Source: Parcubacteria group bacterium (lineage in GTDB: Bacteria; Patescibacteriota; Minisyncoccia; Moranbacterales; UBA2206). From it: DNA of 64,000 bases. Positions 4,070 to 58,551 of this stretch are shown here, piece by piece. Numbering within the stretch: position 1 is the stretch's first letter; each line of letters begins with the position of its first letter. The position numbers were made by a program, and so were the translations under genes. The DNA is taken from positions 33,206 to 97,205 of the forward strand of contig JBAZUU010000002.1 in assembly GCA_041661275.1 (NCBI GenBank). Reading direction: 5' to 3'. A model generated the notes under the pieces. The model was not told where the DNA came from. It did no database searches and saw only the letters and a program-made list of their open reading frames with translations.

Positions 4070-4185
4070 ATAAAATTTTCAATTTGAAATTTTAAATTTA
4101 AAATCAAATCTTAATTTAAAATTTTAAATTAAATCATTAAAAATTTATTTCAAATTTCAAATTAAAAATTTAAAATTTTAATCAC

Positions 4186-5417: not shown

Positions 5418-5423
5418 AAACGT

Positions 5424-5497
5424 CTTCCTCCTCTCCCTTCGGGAGAGGATGTCAGCCAAATTTTTTCTTAAAAATTTTGGCTGACAGGAGAGGGGAC
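5424..5497. repeat. GC-hairpin palindromic repeat unit (family 1): CCTCTCCC-loop-GGGAGAGG, then a TGTCA...TGACA hairpin, then GGAGAGGG
   Basis: cctctcccttcgggagagg hairpin followed by tgtcagccaaa...tttggctgaca hairpin and ggagagggg. Near-identical units are at 9663-9726 and (in inverted orientation) 26625-26673. Confidence 0.7.
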
Positions 5498-6667
5498 TCG
5501 CCAATACATATAAAACCTATGAAAAGTCAAGTAAAAAAGACAGAGCATCCATCCATCCTGCTCTCAAAAAAACTCGGAGGGAAAGTGGAAATTAGAAGCA
5601 AAGTTAAACTAACAAAAGATAATTTAAAGGTTTTGTATACTCCGGGTGTGGCGGAGGTTTCCAAAGCTATCGCCAAGGATAAGAAACTTTCGAAAATTTA
5701 TACCATTCGCAAAAATACCATTGCTGTCATTTCTGATGGCAGCGCGGTGCTTGGTCTTGGTAACATCGGACCGGAAGCAGCTATGCCAGTTATGGAAGGA
5801 AAGTCACTGTTATTTAAAGAATTAGGCAATGTTGATGCTTTTCCCATTGTTCTTAATACTCAGGATACGGAAGAAATAATAAAAATAGTAAAAGCCTTGG
5901 AACCGAGTTTTGGCGGGATAAATTTGGAAGATATTTCCGCGCCAAGATGTTTTGAGATCGAAGAACGTCTCAAAAAAGAAATGAATATTCCTGTCATGCA
6001 TGACGACCAGCATGCCACAGCGGTAGTGATTTTGGCCGGGCTTATCAATGCTTTGAAAGTGGTGAAAAAGGATATTAAAAATATAAAAATAGTTATTTCC
6101 GGAGTCGGAGCGGCTGGAATCGCTACGGCCAAACTTCTTTTGAAATATGGAGCGAAAAATATAATAATGGTCGATTCTTCCGGAACTATATATAAAGGCC
6201 GGGACAATATGAATCCGGTAAAAGTTAAATTAGCAGTGATAACAAATAAAGGCATGATTAAGGGTGGCGTACGCGACGCACTGAAAAATTCCGATGTTTT
6301 TATCGGTCTTTCCGCGCCTAACATTTTGACTGAAGAAGACATCAGATGTATGAATAAGGACGCGATCGTTTTTGCCATGGCCAATCCTGTTCCGGAGATT
6401 ATGCCGGAGAGAGCCAAGGCTGGCGGAGCCAGAATTATTGCTACTGGCCGTTCTGACTATCCCAATCAGATCAATAATGTCCTGGTCTTCCCGGGAATTT
6501 TTAGAGGAGCGCTCGACAATAATATCAAAAAAATTACTGATAATCATAAACTTGCGGCCGCTCGCGCTATTGCCGGATTGATAAAAAAACCAAAGAGTAG
6601 TAAAATAATACCAGAAGCATTGGATCCACGAGTAATGAAAGCTGTGGCACGCGTGTTTAAAAGATAA
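5477..6667 (+). CDS. NAD(P)-dependent malic enzyme (small type)
   Basis: YTPGVAEV, ISDGSAVLGLGNIGPEAAMPVMEGK, ISGVGAAGIA Rossmann motif. Listed start is TTG inside the repeat; the real start is probably ATG at 5519 (MKSQVKK). Confidence 0.85.
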   Translation: MADRRGDSPIHIKPMKSQVKKTEHPSILLSKKLGGKVEIRSKVKLTKDNLKVLYTPGVAEVSKAIAKDKKLSKIYTIRKNTIAVISDGSAVLGLGNIGPEAAMPVMEGKSLLFKELGNVDAFPIVLNTQDTEEIIKIVKALEPSFGGINLEDISAPRCFEIEERLKKEMNIPVMHDDQHATAVVILAGLINALKVVKKDIKNIKIVISGVGAAGIATAKLLLKYGAKNIIMVDSSGTIYKGRDNMNPVKVKLAVITNKGMIKGGVRDALKNSDVFIGLSAPNILTEEDIRCMNKDAIVFAMANPVPEIMPERAKAGGARIIATGRSDYPNQINNVLVFPGIFRGALDNNIKKITDNHKLAAARAIAGLIKKPKSSKIIPEALDPRVMKAVARVFKR

Positions 6668-7112: not shown

Positions 7113-7746
7113 CAAATTTATGAGTAAGCTGGTTAATGAGTTGATAAAACAGGGATATCTTAAGTCCGACCTGATTATTGACGCCTTTTCTGAGATCAGC
7201 CGGGTTGAATTTGTTCCGCATGAATTGGAAAAGGAAGCAGAAGCGAACATCGCCCTCCCTATCGGTTATGGGCAAACCATTTCTCAGCCATTGACAGTGG
7301 CGTTTATGCTGGAACTTCTTGATCCAAAAAGAAGCCAAAATGTCCTGGACATTGGTTCCGGTTCTGGCTGGACAACCGCCCTTCTTTGCTATATAGTTGG
7401 GCGACATGGAAAAGTTACGGCTATTGAGCGAAAAGAGGAGCTTAAAAAAATGGGAGAAAAAAATACCGATAAATATGGATATCTCCGAAACGGAAAAGAT
7501 GGCATCGCTGAATTTTTTGTAGGCGATGGGACAAAAGGATTCAAAAAAAACGCGCCGTATGATAGGATTCTTGTATCTGCTTCGACTGAATGCGTCCCCA
7601 ACGATCTCAAAGAACAATTAAAAGTTGGAGGAAAGATGGTTGTCCCGCTTCGTCATAGTATTTGGTATATGGAGAAGAAAGGGGATAATGATTTTTACAA
7701 AGAAGAATATCCTGGGTTTGAGTTTGTACCGCTCATCGAAGACTAA
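7066..7746 (+). CDS. pcm: Protein-L-isoaspartate O-methyltransferase
   Basis: GYGQTISQP, VLDIGSGSGW and PYDRI motifs. Probable true start at 7120 (MSKLVNEL). Confidence 0.8.
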   Translation: MEREPATLSFRLWGYNKFMSKLVNELIKQGYLKSDLIIDAFSEISRVEFVPHELEKEAEANIALPIGYGQTISQPLTVAFMLELLDPKRSQNVLDIGSGSGWTTALLCYIVGRHGKVTAIERKEELKKMGEKNTDKYGYLRNGKDGIAEFFVGDGTKGFKKNAPYDRILVSASTECVPNDLKEQLKVGGKMVVPLRHSIWYMEKKGDNDFYKEEYPGFEFVPLIED

Positions 7747-7854
7747 AATTTGTAATTAGAAATTTTTAATTTTTAATGAATTTCTAATTACTAAATTTTA
7801 AAATTTTAAATTCAATAAAAATTTCAAATTAAAAATTAAAAATTACGAGTAAGG

Positions 7855-9505: not shown

Positions 9506-9564
9506 AATAGCTGCGGCTGGGAGCGTCATTCCTGGCCGCGGTTTTTGTTTTGGCTTTTAGTATT

Positions 9565-9726
9565 CCCTCTCTCCCCTTGGGAGAGATGTCACGATTCTTA
9601 TCGTGACAGAGAGGGTGCTATGTAAAACGGAAAAATTAAAGTTTTGTGAATTTAATTTAGAACCCTCTCCTGTCAGCCAAAATTTTAAGAAAAATTTAGG
9701 CTGACATCCTCTCCCGAAGGGAGAGG
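9565..9726. repeat. Composite family-1 element: two hairpin-pair units in inverted orientation flanking ~47 bp
   Basis: Left unit ccctctctccccttgggagagatgtcacgattcttatcgtgacagagaggg. Right unit ccctctcctgtcagcc...ggctgacatcctctcccgaagggagagg is near-identical to the reverse complement of the 5424-5497 unit. Confidence 0.7.
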
Positions 9727-9739
9727 AGGAAGAATGAGG

Positions 9740-19268: not shown

Positions 19269-19718
19269 ATGAATTGTCCATTTTGTAACAATCAAGAAAC
19301 AAAAGTAGTAGATTCACGGGATACTAGTGATGGAAAAATAACCCGCAGACGTCGTGAATGCTTCAAATGCACTGCCCGGTTTTCCACTTATGAAGAAATA
19401 GAGCTTTTACGACTGGCCATCGTCAAAAAAGACGGTTCAAAAGTTGATTATGATAAGTGTAAAATCGAAGCGGGGATAAAAAAAGCATTGGAGAAGCGGC
19501 CAATCACTCAAGAAAGATTTGCCAAACTCATGGGAGACATCGAATATGATATGCGGTCGATGGAAAAGCCGGAAATAACCACCAGAGAAATCGGAAAAAT
19601 GGTGCTCAAAAAACTGAAAGAACTCGACGAAGTCGCTTATGTGCGATTTGCGAGCGTCTATAAATCATTCGGATCGATAGAGAGTTTCAAGAAAGAATTA
19701 GATACGTTTGACAAATAG
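19269..19718 (+). CDS. nrdR: Transcriptional repressor NrdR
   Basis: MNCPFCNNQETKVVDSRDTSDGKITRRRRECFKC zinc ribbon plus ATP-cone. Confidence 0.9.
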   Translation: MNCPFCNNQETKVVDSRDTSDGKITRRRRECFKCTARFSTYEEIELLRLAIVKKDGSKVDYDKCKIEAGIKKALEKRPITQERFAKLMGDIEYDMRSMEKPEITTREIGKMVLKKLKELDEVAYVRFASVYKSFGSIESFKKELDTFDK

Positions 19719-19722
19719 AAGA

Positions 19723-19837
19723 TAGTTGATTGGAAAATAGAAAATAGTTCAGGAAAAAAGAAATAGGAGAATGGAAAATCAAATTTCTAATTTCCACTTT
19801 CTTAAGCCATTTTCCTTTTTCTATTCAACTAATTTCT
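19723..19837. repeat. Imperfect palindromic intergenic element, family 'agttgattggaaaatag...gttcaggaaa...ccattttc...tattcaactaatttc' (copy 1)
   Basis: Related copies at 28201-28330 (opposite orientation) and 46171-46286. Arms are partially self-complementary. Confidence 0.65.
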
Positions 19838-19871
19838 TTATAATATTTTTTAATAATCTAATTTAATTGTT

Positions 19872-25088: not shown

Positions 25089-26684
25089 GTGACCAAATCA
25101 AAAGTATTTTTTATTTTATCATTGGGTTTTATCGGGGGTGTTTTTAGTGCCTCTTTTTATTATCCCAGTCTGATTGATAATTATTATTTATTAATTTTAG
25201 TTTTGCTAGCTGTTATAATTCTAGCTATTTTTTACAAAAAACCGGCGATGATGGCCGGATTTTTTATATTATTTTTTATTTTTGGTATACACTTGACGGA
25301 AAAAAGACTGGAAGTGGTGAAAAATATAAAAGAAGATGATTTTTCGGGGGAGGTTGTGGTAATAGGCGAGCCAACAATATCAGGCAGGCAACAAAGAATG
25401 GTTGCTTTTCCCAAGATCCAACCTTTGGAGCAGCTCCCAAGGTTGAACCTTGGAACTGATTCAAGATTTTTAATAACCGCTGGAATTTTTCCTGAATATA
25501 AATATGGAGATGTTTTGAGAGTTGATTGTAAATTGGAAATTCCAAAGAATTTTGGACGAGGTCCTTCGACTGCGTCCGACTTGCGGTCGGACTCCGCTCA
25601 GGACGAATCCTCCGGATTCGATTACAAAATGTATCTAGCCAAAGACGGGATTTATTATCTTTGCAATAATCCTAAAATAGAAGATCTTAATAGAAACGAA
25701 GGAAATAAATTTTACGCGGCGATATTGAATATTAAAAATAAATTTAATGACAATATAATGAAGCTGATGCCGTCGCCGCAGTCGGGGTTGCTTTCGGGAT
25801 TATTAATCGGAGGATCGGGGCTACTTTCTAAAGACTATCAAAATTATTTTTCTCTCACCGGCACAACGCACATCGTAGCAGTGTCCGGATACAATGTAAC
25901 AATTGTCGCGGAATATCTGATGCTTCTGGGACTTTTTATCGGTCTCTGGCGGCAGCAAGCCTTTTGGTTTGCGGCTATTGGAATAATTTTTTTTGTAATT
26001 TTAACCGGCATGCCGTCTTCGGCCGTTCGGGCGGGAGTGATGGGGATTCTTCTCATTTGGGCGATGAAGAACGGGCGATTGGCTAACGCGCAAAATGCTA
26101 TCATATTTGCGGCGGGAGTTATGCTATTGGCAAATCCATTGTCATTGCGTTGGGATGTCGGATTTCAACTGTCATTTTTGGCGACACTGGGGATCGTTTA
26201 TGTTTATCCGATATTTAATGAATATCTTATGAAATTAGACGCGATGAATCGCGTCTCTACGATTGCGGAAATATTATTTCTTACACTATCGGCGCAGGTT
26301 TTTGTTTTGCCGATATTGATGATTAATTTTGGAAAATTGTCTCTCATTTCACCTCTGGCTAACGTCCTGATTTTGCCCATTATTCCGCTCACGATGCTCA
26401 CCGGATTTATAGCTATCCTTTTTAGTTTTATCATTCCGCCCATCGGTCAAGTCTTCGCCTGGTTGGCCTTTTTGCCGTTGAAATATGAAACGATGGTAAT
26501 AAAATTTTTGGCCAGTCTAAAATATTCCTCGGTGGAAATTTCCAATTTTTCGTGGATTGGAGTGGTTTTGTGGTATATAATTTTAGGAGGAGGGGTAGTT
26601 TTGATTAAAAAGAAAATAACAAATCCTCCTCTCCCCTTGGGAGAGGATGCCGAGTCTTCGAGGCAGGAGAGGGCTCCTAATTAA
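25089..26684 (+). CDS. comEC: ComEC/Rec2 competence channel protein (DUF4131 + competence domains)
   Basis: Multi-pass membrane protein. GYNVTIVAEYLM and competence-domain similarity. Last 19 codons and the stop are contributed by repeat element C. Confidence 0.8.
   Translation: MTKSKVFFILSLGFIGGVFSASFYYPSLIDNYYLLILVLLAVIILAIFYKKPAMMAGFFILFFIFGIHLTEKRLEVVKNIKEDDFSGEVVVIGEPTISGRQQRMVAFPKIQPLEQLPRLNLGTDSRFLITAGIFPEYKYGDVLRVDCKLEIPKNFGRGPSTASDLRSDSAQDESSGFDYKMYLAKDGIYYLCNNPKIEDLNRNEGNKFYAAILNIKNKFNDNIMKLMPSPQSGLLSGLLIGGSGLLSKDYQNYFSLTGTTHIVAVSGYNVTIVAEYLMLLGLFIGLWRQQAFWFAAIGIIFFVILTGMPSSAVRAGVMGILLIWAMKNGRLANAQNAIIFAAGVMLLANPLSLRWDVGFQLSFLATLGIVYVYPIFNEYLMKLDAMNRVSTIAEILFLTLSAQVFVLPILMINFGKLSLISPLANVLILPIIPLTMLTGFIAILFSFIIPPIGQVFAWLAFLPLKYETMVIKFLASLKYSSVEISNFSWIGVVLWYIILGGGVVLIKKKITNPPLPLGEDAESSRQERAPN
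25437..25453. repeat. REP-like palindrome CCAAGGTTGAACCTTGG inside the comEC reading frame
   Basis: Identical palindrome flanks the RAYT gene at 49526-49550 and 50232-50258. Here it encodes ...LPRLNLGT... in frame. Confidence 0.7.
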
Positions 26685-26773
26685 ATTCGCAAAACTATAA
26701 GCTTGTTACTGTTTCACCAAGAGCCCTCTTTGTCACGATAAGAATTGTGACATCTCTCCCAGGGGGAGAGAGG
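26625..26773. repeat. Composite family-1 GC-hairpin element (two inverted units) spanning the comEC stop
   Basis: cctcctctccccttgggagagg...gagaggg and ccctctttgtcacgataagaattgtgacatctctcccagggggagagagg. The right unit is nearly the reverse complement of the 9565-9615 unit. Confidence 0.7.
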
Positions 26774-26980
26774 AAAGAAAAAAGACAATAAAAAAATCCC
26801 CGATTCTTAACCGCGGCGGCGGCGAAAGTCGGGGGCTAATCCCACCATGGATCGTTCCAGATCAGATGGGCGATGATATGAAAAATAATGTCACTTAGAT
26901 TGTATATCATATCATGATTTCACTAAAAAATCAAGCGCTCTCATACGATAAGCTAAAATTCTCCTTAACCAAGCCAAAAT

Positions 26981-27811
26981 ATGCCTAATCGAAAAGCCCT
27001 ATATTTAATCCTCCTGACTCTTGCTATCATTGCCGCTATTTTGGCGGGGATTATTTGGTATCAGCAAAAACAAGAAATGAAAGTGGTTTTTTTTGATGTG
27101 GGACAAGGGGATTCCATTCTGATTGAGCAGGGAAGTAATCAGATTTTGATTGATGGTGGACCGGACGGAAAAAAAGTAATGGAAAAATTGGGCGAATATG
27201 TACCGTTTTGGGATAGGAATATAGAAGTGGTGATAGCGACTCATCCGGACGAAGACCATATTGACGGGCTCATTGATGTCATGGAAAATTACAATATTGG
27301 TGAAATAATCGATAATGGAGCTGATGTAGACAGTCAGGTTTATAAAAAATATCAGGACGTAATCTCGCAAAAAAATATCAATCGTATCGAGGGAAAATCG
27401 GGAATGGAAATAAAACTGGCGGATAATACAAAACTTTCTATTTTATCTCCTGATGGAACGCAAGACAAAAATAACCCGAAAGATACAAATCTTTCGAGCA
27501 TCGTTTCTAAACTAACTTTCGGTGAAAATAGTTTTTTATTTACTGGCGATTTTCCGACAGAAGGCGAGCAAGATTTATTTAGTAAAAATATCGATTTACG
27601 CGCGCGAGTGCTGAAAGTAGCTCATCATGGGTCAAAATATGCAACAAGTGACGAATTTCTAGATAAAGTTAACCCACAAGAGGCAGTAATATCCGTTGGG
27701 AAAAACAATAGATATGGACACCCGGCAGAGGATGTGATAAGCAGATTGGAAGCGCATAAAATTAATATAAAAAGAACCGATGTATCCGGAGATATCGAGT
27801 ATCAATTTTAA
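26981..27811 (+). CDS. Metallo-beta-lactamase fold protein, ComEC C-terminal-like (ComEC/Rec2-related)
   Basis: N-terminal transmembrane helix. FFDVGQGDSILIE, HPDEDHIDGL, LKVAHHGS MBL motifs. Confidence 0.75.
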   Translation: MPNRKALYLILLTLAIIAAILAGIIWYQQKQEMKVVFFDVGQGDSILIEQGSNQILIDGGPDGKKVMEKLGEYVPFWDRNIEVVIATHPDEDHIDGLIDVMENYNIGEIIDNGADVDSQVYKKYQDVISQKNINRIEGKSGMEIKLADNTKLSILSPDGTQDKNNPKDTNLSSIVSKLTFGENSFLFTGDFPTEGEQDLFSKNIDLRARVLKVAHHGSKYATSDEFLDKVNPQEAVISVGKNNRYGHPAEDVISRLEAHKINIKRTDVSGDIEYQF

Positions 27812-27912
27812 ATTTGAAATTTTAAATTTGAAATGAATTTTAAATGACTAAATTTGAAATTAAAGCATTAAAAATTGATTAAAAATTTTAAATTAAAAAT
27901 TAAAAATTACAG
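27812..27912. repeat. AT-rich 'aaatttgaaat(g)a' repeat element (family shared with 4076-4185, 7747-7851, 58365-58500)
   Basis: aatttgaaatgaattttaaatgac and terminal aaattaaaaattaaaaattac(g)ag shared with the copy at 7747-7851. Confidence 0.5.
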
Positions 27913-27990: not shown

Positions 27991-28194
27991 ATGCCAGTAG
28001 CCAGACAAAGACATACCAAAGCCAGACGCGACAGAGCGAGAGTGTTTTACAAGCTAAAACCGAAAAGTCTTGTGGAATGTTCCAATTGTAGCGCTATGAT
28101 CATTGCCCATACCACTTGCCCAAAATGCGGATTTTATAAGAAAAAAGAAGTGGTGGACACGATGAAGAAAGCGACAAAAAAAGCGAAAAAGTAG
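27991..28194 (+). CDS. rpmF: 50S ribosomal protein L32
   Basis: MPVARQRHTKARRDRAR...ECSNCS...CPKCGFYKKKEV matches the bL32 pattern with a zinc-ribbon Cys pair. Confidence 0.7.
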   Translation: MPVARQRHTKARRDRARVFYKLKPKSLVECSNCSAMIIAHTTCPKCGFYKKKEVVDTMKKATKKAKK

Positions 28195-28200
28195 TTTTTA

Positions 28201-28330
28201 GAAATTAGTTGAATAGAAAAAAGAAAATGGTTTAAGAAATAGGAAATAGGAAATAAGAAATTAGATCATATCTTTTTTCCAACTTCTTCTTTCCTGAACT
28301 ACTTTCCATTTTCCAATCAACTATTTTCCA
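28201..28330. repeat. Imperfect palindromic intergenic element, family 'agttgattggaaaatag' (copy 2, inverted relative to copy 1)
   Basis: gaaattagttgaatagaaaaaagaaaatggtttaagaaatagg ... cctgaactactttccattttccaatcaactattttcc. Confidence 0.65.
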
Positions 28331-28337
28331 ATTTTCT

Positions 28338-29678: not shown

Positions 29679-32048
29679 ATGTTTCTCAAACGCCTAGAAA
29701 TTAACGGCTTCAAATCATTTGCCTCCAAAACCACTTTGGATTTTTTGATTGACTCTGAAAACCACAAGACTCATGGGATAACAGTAGTGGTCGGACCAAA
29801 TGGAAGTGGCAAATCCAACATTGCCGATTCTTTGCGTTGGGTGATGGGGGAGCAATCAATGAAACATCTGCGCGGAAAAAAATCAGAGGACATTATTTTT
29901 GCCGGAAGTGGAAAAAAAGCGCGTTTAGGGAGTGCCAAAGTAACTTTATATCTAGACAATTGTGACCAAAAAATTCCCATTGATTTTTCCGAAGTTACCA
30001 TTGCCAGAAAAATTAACCGTTCTGGCGAGGGAGAATATTTTATCAATGGTTCGCGTGTCCGTCTTCAGGATATTACCGATCTTTTGGCCAAAGCTGGCGT
30101 AGGAAAAGAAAGTTATGCCATTATCAACCAGGGAATGGCCGATGCTATTCTTGCCGCCTCGCCACTGGAACGCCGGACGATCATTGAAGATGCAGCCGGA
30201 GTGAAACAATATCAGATCAAAAAAGAAAGGTCTATCCGAAAACTGGATTCAACTCGGGAAAATTTGGAGCGAGTGAAAAGTTTAGTAGAAGAAATAAAGC
30301 CGCATCTTCGAATGCTCAAAAGACAATCGGACAAAGCGGCTAAGAGTGAGGAAATATTTACGAGTCTTAAAGAAAAGCAGATAAAACTTTTCAGTCATCT
30401 TTGGCATAATTTTCGAGACGAGAAACAAATTTTTGATGAAAAAAAAGACGAATTGGGACGAGAGATGATGAATATGCAACGCGAAGTAGATAAACTTTTA
30501 GACGCAATAAACGCGGAAGAAAAGAACAATAAGGAAAATGAGACTCTCGCCGGATTGGAAAAAGATTCTAGGGAAGCTCGGGTGAAATATAATACTCTCG
30601 AGCGAGAGCTGATCATAACAGAGGGACGATTGGAAATTGAAAAAGAGAAGCAAGCTAGCCGGCAAGTCTTGGAGGAGATAAAAATAACCAGTATTCCTGT
30701 CGATTCTCTTTATGTCAAAAAAATAGTGGAAGAAATCCGGATCGACCAGGAAAGGTTGATAGAAAAATTACAAAAAGTGGAAAAGATTGAAGAACTCCAA
30801 GATATCAAAGAATTTGCCCGAGCGATCCAACAAAGACTATTTGAGCTCAAAGCAGATATTGAAAAAGGGAAAAAGGAGCAGAATTCCGAGAGCGAGGCTC
30901 TCGGAGCCGCTCCAAGAGCCTCGCTCTCGGATGCTTCTGAAATTAAGAAAGACAACTCGGTAATTTTAGAATTGCAAAATAAATTAGTCCAGTTGAGAAA
31001 GGATATAAAGGATCTGGAAAACAAAATTAGAGAAATCGATGAATCGAGAGAAAAAGAAATAACGGAAGACAGAAATCGACGCCAGAAATTTTTTGAGATT
31101 GAAAGAAAAATGAGGACAAAGCAGGATGAACTGGGAAAACTGAAAGATCAATTCAATGATGCCAAAATTTCTTTGGCGCGCGTGGAAGTGCGAGAGGAAG
31201 ATTTGAGGACGGATGTAAAATCAGCGCTCAAAATAGAACCCGAGGAACTTTCAAAAAATAATGAAGAAATCAATCGGGAAGAGTTGGAGCGAGAAGTGGC
31301 GCGTCTGAAAATCCAACTGGAACAGATCGGCGGAATAGATCCGATGGTGATAGATGAATATAGGGAAACTCAAAAACGTTTTGATTTTCTCTCCACTGAA
31401 TCAGAAGATCTGGAAAAAGCTATTGGTAGTCTTCGGGAGATAATAAAAGAAATGGAGCAAAAAATTTCTAAGGAATTTGAGCTGGCTTTCACCGAGATCA
31501 ACAAAGAATTCACCAAATACTTCAAAATAATTTTTGGTGGCGGCGCAGCGCATCTGACAAAAGTTAAGGTAAAAAATCGGAAGTTTAAGATTAAAAAAAC
31601 CGAAGAAGAATCAGATTTAGAAACTGAAAATATAGAGCAAAACGGTGATGACAATGTAGAAGATGTGGAAAATGAAAAGGATGAGATCGGAATCGATATC
31701 TTTGCTTGTCCGCCAGGAAAAAGAATAACCAGCCATGCTATGCTTTCGGGAGGTGAACGGTCACTTACTTCTCTGGCTCTTCTCTTTGCTGTCATTGCCC
31801 ACAACCCACCACCATTCTCTATTTTGGATGAAGTAGAGGCGGCACTTGATGAAGCTAATTCCAGACGTTTTGGCCGGATACTTTCAGAGCTTTCCAAAAA
31901 CACTCAATTTGTCATTATCACTCATAACCGTGAAACCATGCGCCAGGCGTCGATGCTCTATGGGGTGACGATGGGGGAAGACGGAATTTCCAAACTTCTT
32001 TCGGTGAGATTAGACCAAGTAGGACAAGGAGGGAAAATTATAAAATAA
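29679..32048 (+). CDS. smc: SMC-like chromosome segregation ATPase (short form, 789 aa)
   Basis: N-terminal Walker A GPNGSGKSN, long coiled coil, C-terminal LSGGERSLTSLALLFA signature and Walker B ILDEVEAALD. Confidence 0.8.
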   Translation: MFLKRLEINGFKSFASKTTLDFLIDSENHKTHGITVVVGPNGSGKSNIADSLRWVMGEQSMKHLRGKKSEDIIFAGSGKKARLGSAKVTLYLDNCDQKIPIDFSEVTIARKINRSGEGEYFINGSRVRLQDITDLLAKAGVGKESYAIINQGMADAILAASPLERRTIIEDAAGVKQYQIKKERSIRKLDSTRENLERVKSLVEEIKPHLRMLKRQSDKAAKSEEIFTSLKEKQIKLFSHLWHNFRDEKQIFDEKKDELGREMMNMQREVDKLLDAINAEEKNNKENETLAGLEKDSREARVKYNTLERELIITEGRLEIEKEKQASRQVLEEIKITSIPVDSLYVKKIVEEIRIDQERLIEKLQKVEKIEELQDIKEFARAIQQRLFELKADIEKGKKEQNSESEALGAAPRASLSDASEIKKDNSVILELQNKLVQLRKDIKDLENKIREIDESREKEITEDRNRRQKFFEIERKMRTKQDELGKLKDQFNDAKISLARVEVREEDLRTDVKSALKIEPEELSKNNEEINREELEREVARLKIQLEQIGGIDPMVIDEYRETQKRFDFLSTESEDLEKAIGSLREIIKEMEQKISKEFELAFTEINKEFTKYFKIIFGGGAAHLTKVKVKNRKFKIKKTEEESDLETENIEQNGDDNVEDVENEKDEIGIDIFACPPGKRITSHAMLSGGERSLTSLALLFAVIAHNPPPFSILDEVEAALDEANSRRFGRILSELSKNTQFVIITHNRETMRQASMLYGVTMGEDGISKLLSVRLDQVGQGGKIIK
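30887..30930. repeat. Palindromic element (family 2: GAGCGAGGCTCTCGGAGCCGCTCCNAGAGCCTCGCTC) in frame inside smc
   Basis: cgagagcgaggctctcggagccgctccaagagcctcgctctcgg encodes SEALGAAPRASLS. A second copy is intergenic at 33731-33773. Confidence 0.7.
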
Positions 32049-33713: not shown

Positions 33714-33730
33714 CAGAAATATTTGTTCTC

Positions 33731-33773
33731 CTGGAGCGAGGCTCTCGGAGCCGCTCCCAGAGCCTCGCTCCAG
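33731..33773. repeat. Family-2 palindromic element, intergenic copy
   Basis: ctggagcgaggctctcggagccgctcccagagcctcgctccag. Confidence 0.7.
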
Positions 33774-33783
33774 GACGGGGTTC

Positions 33784-46159: not shown

Positions 46160-46170
46160 ATTAAATTAGA

Positions 46171-46286
46171 AAATAGTTGATTAGAAACTGGAAAATAGTT
46201 CAGGAAAATGGAGATTAGAAAATAGATATCCTGTTTCCAATTTCTTTTTTCTTAAACCAATTTCTATTTTCCATTCAACTAATTTC
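46171..46286. repeat. Imperfect palindromic intergenic element, family 'agttgattggaaaatag' (copy 3)
   Basis: tagttgattagaaactggaaaatagttcaggaaaatggagattag ... cttaaaccaatttctattttccattcaactaatttc. Confidence 0.65.
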
Positions 46287-46299
46287 TAAAACGAAAGAG

Positions 46300-48198: not shown

Positions 48199-49521
48199 AT
48201 GAATGATAAACCAAAAAAATTAGTATATCTGGAAAAAATCCTTCGTCTGATGGCTGTTTTGGTGTTGAAAAAATACCACCCTCGCATCATTGGTATCACC
48301 GGATCAGTGGGAAAAACTTCAGCCAAAGAAGCTATTTTCACAGTTTTAGCGAGTCATGGAAGTGTCAGAAAGAATGAAAAAAACTACAACAATGAAATAG
48401 GCCTGCCACTGACTATTATCGGGACAGAAACAGGCGGAGATTCTCTGGCTGGTTGGATGAGAGTATTTTTGAAATGGACCGGTCTTGTTGCATACCCTGC
48501 AAAATATCCGGAATTTCTGATTTTGGAAATTGCCGCTGACCGGCCAGGCGATGTTAAGTATCTGGTTGATTTTGTGAAACCTGAACTTGGTGTTATCACC
48601 GACATATCCGGAAGCCATTTGGAATTTTTTAAAACTTTGGAAGGAATAACAAAAGAAAAAGGATATCTGGCCAAAAATGTAAAAGAAAATGGCGCGGCTA
48701 TTCTTAATATCGACAATCCTCAACTGAAAAAATTGAAAAACGAAACAAAATCGAGAGTGCTAACATTTGGATTTGGAGAGGAAGCGGATATTCGAGCCAC
48801 TGATGTTCTGTATAACTATGCGTCCAATGAGCAAAACGGAAATAGAGAATTGAAAGGATTGAGCTTTAAGTTAAATTACAAAGGAACATCAATGCCGATG
48901 CGGCTCAATAATATTTTGGCGGAACACAGCATCTATTCGGCTCTGGCCGGAGTGGCCGTGGGGATTGAGATGGGTTTGAATCTTGTGGAAATAGGGAAGG
49001 CTCTCGAAAATTTTTCTTTGCCGTCGGGTCGCATGAATCTTATCCGCGGAATAAAAAACACTATTCTTATCGACGATACCTATAATGCATCTCCGGTTTC
49101 CACTGCGGCGGCTCTTAAAGTTTTCAAAAGCATTGAAGCTAAAAGAAAAATCGCAGTTCTCGGCGATATGCTGGAACTGGGAATAAACACTGAACCAGGG
49201 CACAGGGAAGTGGCCAGGGAATTCTTGGCGTCTGGCGGAAATATTTTTATGGCAGTAGGCCGTCGAATGGAGCAGGCAATAGACGAACTCAAAAAACATA
49301 ACATCGATGAAAACAGAATTTTCCATTTCAGATCGCCAATGGAAGCCGGACTTAAACTTCAAGAAATCATGCATGAGGGTGATTTAATCCTGATTAAAGG
49401 GTCGCAGGGAATGAGAATGGAAAAGATCGTGGAAGAGGTGATGGCCGAACCTCTACGCGCTCCGCAACTTCTTTGTCGTCAGGATGAGAAATGGAGGAAG
49501 AAGGAGTGGAAGGAAGTCTAA
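48199..49521 (+). CDS. murF: UDP-N-acetylmuramoyl-tripeptide--D-alanyl-D-alanine ligase
   Basis: GITGSVGKTS P-loop, DDTYNASP (MurF-type) motif. 3' end abuts the REP/RAYT insertion. Confidence 0.8.
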   Translation: MNDKPKKLVYLEKILRLMAVLVLKKYHPRIIGITGSVGKTSAKEAIFTVLASHGSVRKNEKNYNNEIGLPLTIIGTETGGDSLAGWMRVFLKWTGLVAYPAKYPEFLILEIAADRPGDVKYLVDFVKPELGVITDISGSHLEFFKTLEGITKEKGYLAKNVKENGAAILNIDNPQLKKLKNETKSRVLTFGFGEEADIRATDVLYNYASNEQNGNRELKGLSFKLNYKGTSMPMRLNNILAEHSIYSALAGVAVGIEMGLNLVEIGKALENFSLPSGRMNLIRGIKNTILIDDTYNASPVSTAAALKVFKSIEAKRKIAVLGDMLELGINTEPGHREVAREFLASGGNIFMAVGRRMEQAIDELKKHNIDENRIFHFRSPMEAGLKLQEIMHEGDLILIKGSQGMRMEKIVEEVMAEPLRAPQLLCRQDEKWRKKEWKEV

Positions 49522-49525
49522 AGCT

Positions 49526-49550
49526 ACTTCCAAGGTTGAACCTTGGAAGT
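49526..49550. repeat. REP-like palindrome ACTTCCAAGGTTGAACCTTGGAAGT (left flank of RAYT)
   Basis: Perfect 25-nt palindrome directly after the murF stop. Confidence 0.8.
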
Positions 49551-49564
49551 GAGAATTTTATTAT

Positions 49565-50233
49565 ATGCAAAGAAAAATACCATTTATCAATGGGGAGTTT
49601 CATCATATTTATAATCGCGGAGTAGATAAACGCGAAATTTTTCTAGATAGAGATGATTATGAAAGGTTTTTTATTTCTATGTATTTTTTAAATACCAAGG
49701 AAAATGATCTGATAAGCAAGTGGTTAGATTTTAAGAAATTTAATCCCAAGGTTCAACCTTGGGAGTTTAAAAAAATAAAGTCGGAAGATAAACTCGTTGA
49801 GCTTAATTGTTATTGTCTAAATGATAATCATTACCACTTTATTATAAAACAACTTCGAGATAGAGGTATTGAAATATTTATGCAGAAACTGGGAACGAGT
49901 TACACTATGTATTTTAATAAGAAGTATGACAGAAGCGGATCATTGCTTCAGGGAAGGTTTAAGTCGGCTTATATTGACTCCGATGATAAATTGCTCTATT
50001 TGTCAGCGTATGTGAATAAAAATCATTCTATCCATGGGTATAAAGAGGGTGATAATTGGCAATATTCAAGTTTGAATGAATACCTGAATAAAAGCAAAAC
50101 TTTTTGTCTTTGCAATAAAAGTCCGATCATTGATCAATTCAGGGACATAAAGGAGTATCAAAACTATATAAATGTGAATGCGCTACAGATGAGAGAAAGT
50201 AAAGAAATGGAAAAAATGGCATTGGAATTTTAA
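49565..50233 (+). mobile_element. IS200/IS605-like HUH-Y1 transposase of REP-associated type (RAYT)
   Basis: YHIYNRG first-strand motif, HuH motif NDNHYHFII, Tyr motif LYLSAYVNKNH (compare E. coli TnpA-REP DYIYINPVKHG). Flanked on both sides by the same palindrome. Confidence 0.75.
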
Positions 50234-50258
50234 CTTCCAAGGTTGAACCTTGGAAGTT
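50232..50258. repeat. REP-like palindrome AACTTCCAAGGTTGAACCTTGGAAGTT (right flank of RAYT)
   Basis: Perfect palindrome. Immediately followed by a diverged copy of the murF 3' end (50259-50313). Confidence 0.8.
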
Positions 50259-50399
50259 ACTTCTCTGTCGGCAAGACGCAAAATGGAAAAGAAAGCCGTG
50301 GAAGGAAGTTTAGTGTAAGATTATTTTTAGAAATAGTAAAACCCCTGGCGGAATACCGGCCAGGGGTTTGTTGTTTATACCTCCTTGTAGCTATAGCAG

Positions 50400-51578
50400 C
50401 TACAGTTTTTTTACCTCGTTTTTGTGGTAAATACGGACAAAAAACATGCAGCCGTCTTTATAGATCCAGTCAACCCGGATCTTCGGAATCAGCCAGTCGT
50501 GGATGTATCCGTCAACTTCCAGTTTCCTGGATTTTTGCGAGTTTCTGTTTGGATCGAAACTTGCGAGCTTTTTTCTGATCACTTTCTGATGCTTATCCGG
50601 AAATTTAAAGAATCTGTTCATGAACTTTTCCGAATAAAGCATGGCCATATTAGTGGCTTGGCAGAAAGTGGGCAACTCGTCTGTCGCTGTTGCCACAACC
50701 AGATCCAGCTCGCTTGGCTCTGTCTCTAGAGCCAATCCGGATCCTGCATTGTCATTCTCCTGCGACAATGACAATACTTCCGCAGAAAGAAAATTCTTGA
50801 ATTTCTCCAAAATCTTTTCTTCGCCGGATCTTTCCAGGGCGCTGATCCGATTCTGAAGTCGAGTTGTTTCAATGCTGTGCTCACGGAGCAGATTGCCGAT
50901 CTTTTGATCTCTGGCGTTCAATTGCTCCGTCAGATCCTTGTTGTTCTGATAGAGCTTGCGGTACTCTGCCGCTTGAGTGTTCAAGCCTCTTTCCAGCTCC
51001 ATTATCTTGGAAATCGATTCTCCCAGCCGCTTATCACGGTCGTTAGTCTCTTTTTTCAGAGCCGAATTGCTATCCGTAATAATACGGTTCCGCTCTTCCA
51101 ACACTCTATTAGCATTTGAAAAAAAATCAACTTCTTCCAGCAGTTCCAACTCTCTTTTTCTAGACGATTCAAGGGCTGGAAGAGATATATTGGTCAATTC
51201 CTGAACCAAGTTAGGGAAGATGTGACAGAACGTTGTGGACATTTCCTGAATAGCGTCGTTTGCATTTTTAATCTTGACGTAAATTTCAAGACCGGGAATG
51301 TCCATGCTTGTTGCTGGCGGGATTATCGTTTCTTTTGGAATCTCTTCCATTTTCTCTGAAACTTCTTCCGGAATCGCTTCTGACACTTCCAGCGTTTCGT
51401 TTTTTGTCTGTTTTGACCGCAGTTCCTCTAGCTTCTCTCGAGTAGTGATGCCATCGGCCTTCAGGCATTTGATGCCCAGGAAAAATATGGAGGAATTCTT
51501 AAGAGAATTGATATAGTCTTCGATTTCCTTCCGACCCTTCTCTTTTGAATTCAGCCATTGCCAGGAAAGCTGGAGCAT
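50400..51578 (-). CDS. Coiled-coil protein with C-terminal RelE/ParE-like toxin-fold domain
   Basis: Last ~80 aa MAMLYSEKFMNRFFKFPDKHQKVIRKKLASF...IRVDWIYKDGCMFFVRIYHKNEV fits the RelE/ParE pattern (...YRIIYRI..vyvLRIGHRKEVY). The N-terminal ~300 aa is heptad-rich and acidic. Confidence 0.5.
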   Translation of the reverse strand: MLQLSWQWLNSKEKGRKEIEDYINSLKNSSIFFLGIKCLKADGITTREKLEELRSKQTKNETLEVSEAIPEEVSEKMEEIPKETIIPPATSMDIPGLEIYVKIKNANDAIQEMSTTFCHIFPNLVQELTNISLPALESSRKRELELLEEVDFFSNANRVLEERNRIITDSNSALKKETNDRDKRLGESISKIMELERGLNTQAAEYRKLYQNNKDLTEQLNARDQKIGNLLREHSIETTRLQNRISALERSGEEKILEKFKNFLSAEVLSLSQENDNAGSGLALETEPSELDLVVATATDELPTFCQATNMAMLYSEKFMNRFFKFPDKHQKVIRKKLASFDPNRNSQKSRKLEVDGYIHDWLIPKIRVDWIYKDGCMFFVRIYHKNEVKKL

Positions 51579-51818
51579 CTTAATTGTCGTCCTTACAACA
51601 CCCTTGCCTACACTTACCCCATGTTCTTCGAGAAGTGTTTCCGATACCCATTCCTGAAAATCTGATTCTGTCGCATCTTTGTCTGGATAGATGAAGTCAT
51701 CGTGTAGTTGACTTGCTATTCATGTGATGTTTTCTGTTTTGATTTTTCTTCCCTTATAACCTGTTTGGGAAGTAATCTCGACAAAGTTTGGTGAATGTAA
51801 GAGAAAATTTTCGGCCAT
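51579..51818 (-). pseudogene. In-frame upstream fragment (ATG 51816-51818, TGA 51720-51722) of the coiled-coil/RelE-like gene: possible disrupted N-terminus or separate small ORF
   Basis: Manual translation: MAENFLLHSPNFVEITSQTGYKGRKIKTENIT-TGA-IASQLHDDFIYPDKDATESDFQEWVSETLLEEHGVSVGKGVVRTTIK-M(50400..51578 ORF), all in one frame. Confidence 0.4.
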
Positions 51819-51980
51819 AGCCCCTTCCTTTCGGTTTTCGGGTTTAAAACAAGTTTTTAATGACCTTTCCAGTGCAACTAAACCTAGCATAAAACAGCTA
51901 AAAAGTCAATAGTAGCTTTACTTTTTACCCCCACAATATTATACTAGAAGCAGTAAATAACGGGGGTAAATAATAAAAAT

Positions 51981-52580
51981 ATGTCAGAGTTACTGGAAAA
52001 TCTTTTTGGTTCAAAGGAGAGAGCGAGACTTTTGCGGTTTTTTCTGCAAAATCCCGACCAGTTGTATGAATTTTCTGACGTGGTCAGAAAAAACATGCTC
52101 AAAAACACGAATACAAGAAGAGAGCTTCAAAATCTTGTCAGGATAAAGTTTGCTATAAAAAGAACAAAGCAGGGAAAAAATTTCTACCAACTCAACCAGG
52201 ACTTCAATTTTTATCCGGAACTAAAGAACCTTATCGCCAAATCTAATGTCTATCCGCAGTGTATGAGTCTCGGAAAGATTTCCAAGATCGGCAACATAAA
52301 ACTGGCAGCCATTTCCGGTGTTTTCATCAACTACCAAAAAAGTAAGGCCGATATGATCCTGGTGGGGGACGCCATTTCCAAAGCTAAACTGAAAAATCTT
52401 ATGAATAATTTGGAGGCGGAAATTGGCCGGGAAATAAATTTTGTGCTTATGACTATGGACGAATTTAAATACCGATTGAACATGCTTGATAAATTCGTTT
52501 TGGAATTTCTGGAAGGTCCGCATGAAGAGGTGATAAACAAGATCCAGGGACTTAAGCAGCTTATAGCAAATCGGAAATAA
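51981..52580 (+). CDS. Hypothetical protein, possible N-terminal winged-helix
   Basis: ERARLLRFFLQNPDQLYEFSDVV resembles a wHTH recognition region. The rest is unassigned. Confidence 0.4.
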   Translation: MSELLENLFGSKERARLLRFFLQNPDQLYEFSDVVRKNMLKNTNTRRELQNLVRIKFAIKRTKQGKNFYQLNQDFNFYPELKNLIAKSNVYPQCMSLGKISKIGNIKLAAISGVFINYQKSKADMILVGDAISKAKLKNLMNNLEAEIGREINFVLMTMDEFKYRLNMLDKFVLEFLEGPHEEVINKIQGLKQLIANRK

Positions 52581-52584
52581 AGGT

Positions 52585-52680
52585 TACGAAATACGAAATT
52601 AATACGAAATACGAAAATACGAAAAAGGGAGACAAGACGTTTCGTATTTCGCTCGTTTTGTATTTCGTAAAACATAACCA
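52585..52680. repeat. Nested inverted repeats of ACGAAATACGAAA (hairpin/terminator region)
   Basis: ttacgaaatacgaaattaatacgaaatacgaaaatacgaaa ... tttcgtatttcgctcgttttgtatttcgtaa. Confidence 0.6.
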
Positions 52681-53765
52681 TGCTTTATTTATTAATAGGA
52701 ATAATAATAATACTCGCGGCCATCATTTGGCTTTTTTTGGATATGAAAAATAAATTAGGAAACGGGCAGGACGGCGAAAAGATGGTGGCGGTTTTGGAAC
52801 GGCTCAATATGCTTTCCCAGCAAAATGAGCATATGCGTCAGACTATGGATTCCAAGCTTTCTGAAACGCACCGGACAACGCAAGAGCAAATGAATCAAAC
52901 TATAAGGACTGTTCAAGGTATTTCCGGCCAATCGGCTAAGCAGATCGCTGATGTGGTGGCGGGGCTGACTAAGCTCGAAGAGACTAACAAGCAAGTGGTC
53001 AATTTTTCGGCGCAACTGCAGAATTTGCAGGATATTTTGAAAAATCCAAAGCAAAGAGGGGTGCTTGGCGAATATTTTTTGGAAGAAACCCTAAAAAATG
53101 TGTTGCCACCCAATTCCTATCAGATGCAATACAAATTCAAAGACGGTATCATTGTTGACGCGGTGGTGTTTGTGGCCAAAAAAATTGTTCCTATTGATTC
53201 AAAATTTTCCCTGGAGAATTACGAAAGAATCTTGAATGCTAAGGATAGCGAGGAAAGAGAAACGTGGGAAAAATCATTCAAGCAGGATCTCAAAAATCGG
53301 ATCGATGAAACTTCCAAATATATTAGACCGGAAGAAGACACCCTCGATTTTGCCTTTATGTTCATTCCGTCGGAAGCGATATATTATGACTTGCTCATTA
53401 ATAAAGTTGGCGCGGTGCAAGTGAATACTCGCGATCTCATAGAATACGCTTTTTGCGAGAAAAAGGTGATTATTGTTTCACCAACATCTTTCTTGGCCTA
53501 TCTTCAGACAGTTTTGCAGGGATTGCGCGCTCTGCAGATAGAAGAAAGCGCCAAAGAGATCCGTTCCAACGTGGAAAAACTAGGAAGGCATATAGTTTCC
53601 TTCGAGGAATTTATGAAAAAAGCAGGTGGAAGCCTGGGGACGACAGTCAGTCATTTCAACAGCGCTTACAAGGAATTTGGAAAAATTGACAAAGACGTGG
53701 CTAAAATTACCGAAGGGGAAAAGCAGATTGAGGTATTGGCTCTCGAAAAACCGACACTGGAATAA
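52680..53765 (+). CDS. rmuC: DNA recombination protein RmuC
   Basis: N-terminal transmembrane segment, long coiled coil and C-terminal RmuC nuclease-like region (FAFMFIPSEAIYYDL...VIIVSPTSFLAYLQ). Confidence 0.8.
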   Translation: MLYLLIGIIIILAAIIWLFLDMKNKLGNGQDGEKMVAVLERLNMLSQQNEHMRQTMDSKLSETHRTTQEQMNQTIRTVQGISGQSAKQIADVVAGLTKLEETNKQVVNFSAQLQNLQDILKNPKQRGVLGEYFLEETLKNVLPPNSYQMQYKFKDGIIVDAVVFVAKKIVPIDSKFSLENYERILNAKDSEERETWEKSFKQDLKNRIDETSKYIRPEEDTLDFAFMFIPSEAIYYDLLINKVGAVQVNTRDLIEYAFCEKKVIIVSPTSFLAYLQTVLQGLRALQIEESAKEIRSNVEKLGRHIVSFEEFMKKAGGSLGTTVSHFNSAYKEFGKIDKDVAKITEGEKQIEVLALEKPTLE

Positions 53766-58125: not shown

Positions 58126-58551
58126 TTGTTCACCTTCCTTTCTAGAGGATCCGCCTAATTTTTTTCAAGCAAAGCTCGAAAAAATTTTGGCGGAAAAATA
58201 AATTATTAAGGTGCTTACGTTGAAGCTTGCGGCTCTTGCGAGCGTCTCATATTAAATTCTAACAAAATCTGAACTGACGTCAACTAGACAAGCGGGTTAA
58301 AATAGGGCTTAATATGGGACATAGCACAGAATATTGGCGCCTAGGAAAGTTCCAGCTTCTTCGGAGTAATAATTTAAAATTTGAAATTTATAATTTGAAA
58401 TGAATTTGAAATGATTTAATTTTAAATTTAAAATTAAGATTTGATTTAAAATTATAAATTCTAAATTTAAAATTATTTTGAAATATTTTTTTCTGGTTGT
58501 GGTATTATCTTATGTTTTAGTTCTTTTTGAAAAAATATTTTTGAAAAAAAG

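Follow-up and report, generated by a model that had tools for sequence, protein, structure and literature searches.

A RAYT-like gene with cognate palindromes behind murF in a Parcubacteria group bacterium, and the duplicated gene end that accompanies it

Systems made up of a REP-associated tyrosine transposase (RAYT) and its repetitive extragenic palindromes (REPs) have, to our knowledge, been characterised almost only in Proteobacteria, Cyanobacteria and Bacteroidetes. Reportedly, RAYT genes flanked by REPs were described by Nunvar in 2010. Here, we analyse a RAYT-like gene from a Parcubacteria group bacterium (GTDB lineage Patescibacteriota; Minisyncoccia; Moranbacterales; UBA2206), where it lies directly behind murF and is followed by a diverged second copy of the murF 3' end. 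The DNA studied is the stretch of 64,000 nucleotides (nt) at positions 33,206-97,205 of the forward strand of contig JBAZUU010000002.1 (assembly GCA_041661275.1); this whole stretch is called the window, and coordinates are window positions. The element is a sequence-remote, Patescibacteria-wide branch of the known RAYT/REP kind. The locus is probably best read as a RAYT-like REPtron in a recombination-prone slot behind murF, with the second gene end as the scar of an inter-lineage recombination that kept murF intact.

The closest described systems are the REPtrons, that is, RAYT (TnpA-REP) genes flanked by REPs (PMC3733652; Bertels 2017, PMC5581495). REPs lie <20 bp from the ends of upstream open reading frames (ORFs) (Di Nocera 2013, PMC3733652). 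In subclass 2.4 of the TnpA-REP proteins, which equals RAYT group 4, the tnpA-REP gene itself contains REP copies in frame, and the REPs have a symmetric, 'double-foot' form (Quentin 2018, PMC6006769). The inserts of this subclass fall between the HUH and Tyr motifs, and its proteins carry the motifs NH[IFV]H / WQ / YIxNNP (PMC6006769). Short palindromes within genes are also known from the Rickettsia palindromic elements and from intragenic REPs in housekeeping genes (PMC3733652). Two further kinds of element bear on the locus and are taken up below, namely the IS200/IS605 TnpA elements and the integrative islands that use the 3' end of a tRNA or protein gene as their target and bring a replacement for it. 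The features of the locus, and the site of the same palindrome in comEC, are as follows (aa, amino acids).

48199..49521, + strand: murF (UDP-MurNAc-tripeptide--D-Ala-D-Ala ligase), intact, 440 aa; Pfam Mur_ligase_M and Mur_ligase_C, TIGR01143
49467..49521, + strand: copy A of the murF terminus, which is the functional end (LLCRQDEKWRKKEWKEV-TAA) and the reference for direct repeat D18
49526..49550, unstranded: left REP-like palindrome ACTTCCAAGGTTGAACCTTGGAAGT, 25 nt; 4 nt past the murF stop and 14 nt before the ORF ATG
49565..50233, + strand: RAYT-like Y1 HUH endonuclease/transposase gene, 222 aa; PF01797, HUH motif H89-Y-H91, catalytic Tyr Y149, N153
49744..49764, unstranded: internal in-frame palindrome copy TCCCAAGGTTCAACCTTGGGA, a 21-nt palindrome encoding NPKVQPWE, inverted relative to the flanks; exact core at 49746-49762
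50233..50257, unstranded: right REP-like palindrome, the identical 25-nt unit; extended 13-bp stem at 50231-50259, overlapping the ORF stop codon
50259..50313, + strand: murF terminus copy B, a relic, LLCRQDAKWKRKPWKEV-TAG; repeat D18, 76% identical to copy A over 54 nt
50339..50369, unstranded: G+C-rich hairpin between relic B and a convergent 392-aa gene, a probable bidirectional terminator; single-stranded DNA fold -14.9 kcal/mol, z -5.4
25411..25453, unstranded: two in-frame palindrome copies within comEC, encoding PKIQPLEQLPRLNLG; diverged copy at 25411-25427, exact copy at 25437-25453

An initial annotation, made from the sequence, had described these elements, and each is present where it was placed or within 1-2 nt of that position. 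The assignment of the 222-aa product as a RAYT/IS200-type Y1 HUH protein flanked by cognate palindromes is supported by several lines of evidence. A search for the Pfam family PF01797 (Y1_Tnp), the check which the initial annotation had named, gave a match of 25.5 bits against a gathering cut-off of 23 bits, and all 44 of 44 aligned homologues also match. The HUH residues H89 and H91, the catalytic Y149 and N153 are invariant across these 44 homologues, and the family motifs read NHYHF / FQG / YVNxN. An AlphaFold model built on the alignment (pLDDT 87.6, pTM 0.85) places the HUH motif on a strand and the Tyr on a helix, and includes a helical C-terminal extension. When this fold was compared with the PDB using Foldseek, the top match (E 3.4e-6, target TM 0.72) was 4ER8_A, in which the E. 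coli RAYT is in complex with a REP hairpin; the IS608 and ISDra2 TnpA structures rank behind it. In sequence, the protein is remote from the proteins of described REPtrons. The curated RAYT model of NCBIfam, NF047646 (REP_Tyr_transpos), gave 20.2 bits (E 4e-4) against its cut-off of 80 bits and was therefore not reached, and a profile search of PDB sequences with the family found nothing at E<=10.

The two flanking palindromes are identical to each other at 25 of 25 nt. As single-stranded DNA, the left copy is predicted to form an 11-bp stem (-10.9 kcal/mol, z -4.9), and z is about -4.9 for both flanking copies. The left palindrome also scores as terminator-like; a sigma-70-like site over it, with its -10 box abutting the ATG, was not above shuffle expectation and was rejected. 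When a 17-nt core of the palindrome was counted on both strands with up to 3 mismatches, the window gave 9 strand-matches at 5 sites, while shuffled sequence leads one to expect 0.12. The copies that had been noticed at first within comEC and within the RAYT gene are borne out, as one exact core (25437-25453) and one diverged core (25411-25427) in the former and an internal core (49746-49762) in the latter.

The RAYT-like gene belongs to a very large family. A word-indexed search returned 1,365 homologues, of which the named ones are nearly all from Moranbacteria, Parcubacteria or Patescibacteria, and some are already labelled 'RayT' by the Joint Genome Institute (JGI). An exhaustive profile search gave 1,212 clusters at 50% identity with E<=1e-30 and 11,786 with E<=1e-10, and genomes taken one per species contain at least 589 loci. 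Considering this essentially Patescibacteria-wide distribution, the view that a REP-RAYT-REP unit is something unusual in a genome of the candidate phyla radiation (CPR) type has to be given up. In the two RAYT surveys searched, terms for candidate phyla are absent or do not refer to taxa, and the one paper found to join RAYT and CPR terms mentions a RAYT in passing only.

The association between gene and palindrome holds throughout the family. Palindrome architecture was scored in 75 usable genome loci, and a G+C-containing palindrome adjoins the gene in 61 of them, with the same core on both sides in 32. The usual position is 10-18 nt before the ATG and 0-10 nt past the stop. The palindrome sequence itself is locus-specific, with feet across the family of the form (C)ACTT..., TTCC... 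or similar. Moreover, the early remark on an internal copy at 49745-49763 turns out to generalise: an internal copy of the gene's own flanking core (at most 1 mismatch in 17, inside the ORF) is present at 45 of 61 family loci, against 4 of 2,892 non-cognate control pairs. The internal copy lies at aa 54-81, before the HUH motif, in 36 of the 45 and at aa 149-160, at or just past the Tyr, in 7. Paralogues that share a genome have identities of 39-70%, none being near-identical, and each has its own palindrome. The same assembly has a second paralogue on another contig (P0019, at 446-1129 of L172), which is 56% identical and has the REP type TCCTAAAGCTAAGCTTAAGGA. Copies of TCCTAAAGCTAAGCTTAAGGA occur upstream, overlapping the end of the preceding gene, within the ORF, where they encode NPKAKLKDF, and inverted downstream; this REP type is absent from the 64-kb window, which likewise holds no second copy of the RAYT-like gene. 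One Y1 gene with one cognate REP type is the REPtron pattern. Across the family, a co-directional gene lies directly upstream in 57 of 71 loci, and no conserved target motif beyond the palindromes is evident.

The gene at murF has a G+C content of 30.8%, compared with about 42% in its flanks. Low G+C was considered as a sign of recent transfer and rejected: the genes at all 76 of 76 family loci lie below their flanks, by a mean of 7.6 points, so that this is a family-wide trait and gives no sign of recent transfer at this locus.

How canonical, then, is the unit? Like the REPtrons, it consists of a Y1 HUH protein, with 4ER8 as its best fold match, whose gene is bracketed by cognate palindromes. 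In both, a genome holds several divergent paralogues, and each of these goes with a palindrome type of its own. Solo palindromes elsewhere, preferentially just 3' of co-directional genes, may be a further likeness, given the comEC doublet in the 64 kb and the solo REP behind murF in the relative L087. The initial annotation called the unit canonical, which overstates the case in view of the score on the NCBI RAYT model (20 against 80 bits), the feet and the copy number. Unlike the REPs of described REPtrons, the palindromes here are fully symmetric and have ACTT...AAGT or similar feet; the unit at murF starts with ACTT and ends with AAGT, and no GTAG (or CGTC) tetranucleotide stands at its 5' foot. 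They are also of low copy, with one extra site in 64 kb, and the hosts are Patescibacteria.

Subclass 2.4 is alike in two respects, since it too has an in-frame REP inside its own gene and symmetric REPs. The internal REP is accordingly not new in kind, having been published for that subclass. The differences from subclass 2.4 lie in the placement of the inserts, which here mostly precede the HUH motif (36 of 45), in the motifs (NHYHF / FQG / YVNxN) and in the hosts, which for subclass 2.4 are mainly Cyanobacteria and Bacteroidetes. The traits that set the present branch apart are symmetric non-GTAG palindromes, a low copy number and an internal copy placed before the HUH motif.

The copies in comEC resemble the Rickettsia palindromic elements and intragenic REPs in that short palindromes lie in frame in protein loops, here of ComEC and of the RAYT itself. 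Unlike the Rickettsia elements, the units are only 17-27 nt long, well below the length of RPE-1, and every type goes with a cognate Y1 gene. In an alignment of 20 ComEC homologues, the loop that holds PKIQPLEQLPRLNLG varies in length. As side observations on this protein (window 25089-26684), it has 531 aa compared with about 485-495 aa in homologues, and REP-like peptides of other sequence, such as GHPVSK and GHSVSK, occupy this loop in other ComEC homologues. A further in-frame insert, GRGPSTASDLRSDSAQDESS (25556-25610), contains the hairpin GTCCGACTTGCGGTCGGAC and is found in some homologues only, and a C-terminal extension (26620-26681) is built on the palindrome CTCTCCCCTTGGGAGAG.

Taken with its roughly 160 relatives, the locus reveals a sequence-remote RAYT branch that is pervasive in Patescibacteria, in which the gene co-varies with its flanking palindromes and internal copy and in which palindromes are written into housekeeping proteins such as ComEC. 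These loci offer a compact natural data set for the co-evolution of protein and hairpin and for the tolerance of repeats in minimal genomes.

We turn now to the two murF ends. The murF product scores 289 bits with TIGR01143 (cut-off 288.6 bits), aligns full-length with orthologues of 439-441 aa and ends in ...QLLCRQDEKWRKKEWKEV-TAA, with the stop at 49521. By direct-repeat comparison, copy B (50259-50312) matches copy A (49467-49520) at 76% of 54 nt with the frame kept; it begins directly where the right palindrome ends and closes with a TAG at 50311-50313. That this downstream copy is genuine, as first noted, follows from two controls. The peptide alignment of A and B scores 81, while the highest of 600 cross-locus peptide alignments reached 42, and of the 64 window ORFs with 150 aa or more, murF alone has a downstream echo of its own 3' end.

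The pattern of divergence between the copies is informative. They differ at 14 positions, counting the stop codon, with no indel. Six codons, the stop included, differ synonymously, and the four replacements (E>A, R>K, K>R, E>P) are each toward a residue common at that position in orthologues. Copy B is 81% identical to the murF end of one relative, L087, and 80% identical to that of another, L005; with 43 of 54 nt matching in both L087 and L088, it resembles orthologous ends as much as whole murF genes of the clade, at 78-80% identity, resemble each other. Because the changes are mainly synonymous or ortholog-typical, and because copy B is as near to orthologous ends as the genes are to each other, the two copies diverged in separate lineages and were then joined by recombination. 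Furthermore, the flanking palindromes are still 25/25 identical, and the divergence of A and B therefore predates their juxtaposition.

The interval behind murF was compared in six relatives, as follows.

L088: murF 90% identical (aa); no palindrome within the 13 nt readable past murF
L087: murF 85% identical (aa); solo palindrome, slightly diverged and offset by the same 6 nt from the stop, followed by a 199-aa gene
L004: murF 84% identical (aa); no palindrome, unrelated cargo behind murF
L169: murF 75% identical (aa); no palindrome, unrelated cargo behind murF
L005: murF 74% identical (aa); no palindrome, unrelated cargo behind murF
L170: murF 70% identical (aa); no palindrome, unrelated cargo behind murF

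In the window, the slot (49522-53765) is occupied by the RAYT gene and the 392-aa gene. The corresponding cargo in L004, L005, L087, L169 and L170 is a 423-aa gene, an MFS transporter, a 74-aa plus a 433-aa gene, or only the solo palindrome. With different cargo in every relative examined, the interval from murF to the 199-aa gene and RmuC is a hypervariable slot across the clade, and it looks like a clade-wide integration hot spot. The order murF / variable slot / 199-aa gene / RmuC is also kept in relatives that have no RAYT gene. The initial annotation had linked the insertion to the point where the division and cell wall (dcw) gene cluster stops; since the same break is present in relatives without the RAYT gene, it was not caused by the insertion. 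As for the neighbouring genes, no homologue of the 392-aa gene occurs in the slots of L004 or L005, and a Pfam search (E<=5) found nothing credible for the 392-aa and 199-aa proteins. An early impression that the C-terminus of the 392-aa protein resembles a RelE/ParE toxin was dropped.

Which of the two murF ends is the native one? Comparison with relatives had been suggested as a way to recognise the ancestral junction, and the murF ends of relatives indeed mostly lack an adjacent palindrome; L087, however, has its solo palindrome, and matches to copies A and B give conflicting answers about the native end. The murF end of the nearest relative, L088, matches copy A at 46 of 54 nt and copy B at 43, whereas that of L087 matches copy A at 36 and copy B at 43. 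Polarising A against B by likeness to relatives was thus tried and set aside, with L088 pointing to A and L087 to B. A second terminus is real, as the initial annotation had it, but these conflicting signals do not single out either copy as the replacement.

One detail may bear on how the ends were joined. The junction falls at a point where the murF sequence (G/C)AACTTCT resembles the outer palindrome arm AACTTCC, a likeness that makes a plausible microhomology or pseudo-site. As a separate observation, the sequence after the murF stop reads TAAAGCTTACTT in the palindrome-free L005 (5144-5155 there) and TAAAGCTACTT in the window (49519-49530), where the remaining palindrome follows, so that TAAAGCT(T)ACTT just past the stop is common to both. 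With its final ACTT, the L005 sequence may preserve what is left of the ancestral empty site.

Duplication of a gene terminus is uncommon in the family. It could be looked for in about 94 loci and is found in 2 of them, the locus in the window and L045. In L045, the copies are stacked (positions of L045).

3716-3936, 4697-4896, 5669-5888: a dockerin-like gene of 535 aa, whose last 200-220 nt are present three times in frame, 81-83% identical

Each of these copies has an intact frame and ends in SWCE-stop. They are separated first by a REP doublet with a RAYT gene and then by an ORF6N-domain gene, and the left boundaries of the duplicated segments differ among the copies. The process recurs, and as one of the duplications flanks the ORF6N gene, it is not confined to RAYT cargo.

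The two loci call to mind the islands that integrate at the 3' ends of tRNA or protein genes. There, as here, the gene is intact on the upstream side of the insert, and a displaced, partial end is found on the downstream side; the L045 ends are stacked as in tandem accretion. The likeness does not go deeper. No tyrosine or serine integrase lies between the murF ends, where the Y1 gene and the palindromes are the sole occupants; the repeats are 76-83% identical and not identical att sites; the left boundaries of the L045 segments vary; and, among 160 other family loci, not one adjoins murF, so that it does not look like a recurrent target in the wider family. A metagenome scan with the RAYT protein returned only relatives of at most 52% identity, with none at murF. 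The proposal that murF is targeted in the manner of tRNA-type islands is not supported, given the missing integrase, repeats that are 76% identical, 0 of 160 loci next to murF and 2 of about 94 with any duplication. The locus is probably not a dedicated murF-targeting integrative element.

The reading that we prefer, a REPtron in a recombination-prone slot with copy B as a recombination scar, can be described as a series of steps. By analogy with E. coli TnpA-REP and IS608 TnpA, the RAYT-like protein would bind its palindrome as a hairpin in single-stranded DNA and would cut and rejoin the DNA beside it. Such cut-and-rejoin events would seed solo palindromes at other sites, for example in comEC and behind murF in L087. 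Copies A and B would have diverged as functional ends in different lineages, until DNA of a related genome was integrated at the murF slot and brought the two diverged ends together. The join would have taken place at the AACTTC/ACTTC motif common to murF and the outer palindrome arm, after which the intact terminus would have stayed on murF. The incoming DNA would have been either the RAYT cassette, bringing terminus A, or the downstream cargo, bringing terminus B, and the RAYT may itself have catalysed the join. At present, the murF duplication reads as a real but uncommon recombination scar and not as a new integration system.

Several points weigh against this reading. The direction of the exchange is given in conflicting ways, with L088 favouring copy A as native and L087 favouring copy B, and sliding-window identity against L087, L004, L005 and L088 revealed no clear breakpoint of recombination within murF. 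Dispersal of the palindrome away from the gene is modest, with the comEC doublet as the one extra site in 64 kb. Assemblies of metagenome-derived genomes may collapse identical repeats, so that copies of the kind made by insertion sequences would be hidden. In addition, the five RAYT-less relatives with other cargos have no relic of a terminus, a hint that the duplication is tied to the RAYT cassette and not to general cargo turnover. Finally, RAYT orthologues at 69-94% identity are also located behind murF or a co-directional gene, a comparison made by gene maps alone: P0003 (69%) is directly behind murF, while P0001 (94%) and P0002 (75%) are behind a co-directional gene that is probably murF, with the 199-aa gene following in the case of P0001. 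A cassette-borne terminus may have recurred at P0001, P0002 and P0003; vertical inheritance explains the murF-linked orthologues equally well.

The alternative that survives best is one in which the cassette itself brings the replacement terminus. Here, a unit made up of the last ~55 nt of murF with its stop, the REP, the RAYT gene and the second REP would integrate at the 3' terminus of the murF already present. It would do so through cut-and-join by the Y1 protein at an ACTT(C) pseudo-site or through a circular intermediate that enters by a single crossover, with the gene restored and the resident end displaced as copy B. We consider this possible, though clearly the less likely account. The layout is exactly what it predicts, down to the ACTT at which copy B starts where it abuts the right palindrome. 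It also draws on the murF end of L087, closer to B than to A (43 against 36 of 54), but the end of L088 is closer to A (46 against 43), and A is continuous with the divergence profile of the gene. The three other contigs on which RAYT orthologues of 69-94% identity stand behind murF or a co-directional gene, with closer murF relatives lacking the gene, would fit this account, as would the lack of any relic in relatives with other cargo and the deficit of 7.6 G+C points in the RAYT genes of all 76 loci, which fits mobility. However, 0 of 160 other family loci are at murF, and a 64%-identical homologue, L086, is sited elsewhere without murF-like sequence. L045 repeats the pattern, with stacked termini, yet one of its duplications flanks the ORF6N gene and not a RAYT, and any duplication at all is seen in only 2 of about 94 loci. 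Moreover, transposition of the IS200/IS605 type makes no flank duplications.

A broader form of this idea would have small cassettes entering the 3' ends of chromosomal genes in Patescibacteria, each bearing its own diverged end and pushing the old end downstream, in an integrase-free manner and with the gene left intact; murF and L045 would be two instances, the cassette being the RAYT-like unit at murF and an ORF6N gene being a second cassette in L045. We think it unlikely. Such terminus replacement could proceed through a circular intermediate made by the Y1 protein, or through recombination anchored by homology on one side once DNA has been taken up. If it were true, murF and L045 would mark a recurrent insertion route in Patescibacteria.

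Could the unit instead be an autonomous IS200-like element (hairpin-tnpA-hairpin, about 733 bp), a recent arrival by transposition in the terminator region of murF, with the palindromes as its ends? It shares the Pfam family and the fold of the IS200/IS605 TnpA elements (IS200, IS608, ISDra2), has subterminal hairpins round a compact unit of ~0.7 kb, is present in some relatives and absent from others, and has a lower G+C content than its host; the single-strand 'peel and paste' chemistry of these elements is presumed to be common to both. Nevertheless, this explanation is improbable. There is no second copy in the window, and family members within one genome, at 39-70% identity, are never near-identical, whereas solo palindromes dispersed in the genome, in comEC and in L087, have no gene copy nearby. 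The ends are identical perfect palindromes and not the distinct imperfect left and right ends of IS200/IS605 elements, and one palindrome is carried inside the ORF itself. The protein is about 70 aa longer than IS200 TnpA, with its helical C-terminal extension, and its fold is nearer to RAYT than to the TnpA of IS608 or ISDra2. Copy B, moreover, is left unexplained.

The murF end might also have been duplicated in situ, by slippage or because the insertion duplicated its target, with the downstream copy then decaying neutrally. Two collinear copies in the same frame with aligned stop codons accord with this, but it is very improbable: the copies have diverged by 24% and show neither an indel nor a premature stop, six codons differ in a synonymous manner and replacements are solely to ortholog-typical residues, the distance of copy B from orthologues is no greater than that between functional termini, and the flanking palindromes remain 25/25 identical.

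If copy B is a recombination scar, as we prefer, the duplicated murF end alone matters less than its combination with L045, as together they mark sites at which diverged alleles are joined. Duplicated ends of this kind would be a usable footprint of inter-lineage recombination in organisms that are not yet genetically manipulable.

The window contains further repeats, which we list for completeness. A second palindromic family has the core CTCTCCC(C/T)T(C/T)GGGAGAG in elements of ~55-100 nt (5423-5477, 9537-9633, 9679-9733, 26624-26645 and 26706-26802); one of its sites is at the comEC 3' end, and no gene cognate to it was found in the window. A composite palindrome of 47 nt, rich in G+C and reading TCCGAGAGCGAGGCTCTCGGAGCCGCTCC..., occurs at 30885-30931 and 33729-33775, the two copies being 85% complementary to each other. 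An AT-rich dispersed repeat of ~109 nt is present at 4066-4182, 7740-7848, 27797-27905 and 58364-58472. Lastly, an inverted-repeat element of ~130 nt, rich in AAATAG/TTTCT, is found at 19710-19851, 28186-28336 and 46163-46291, with one copy just upstream of the penicillin-binding protein (PBP) gene of the dcw cluster.

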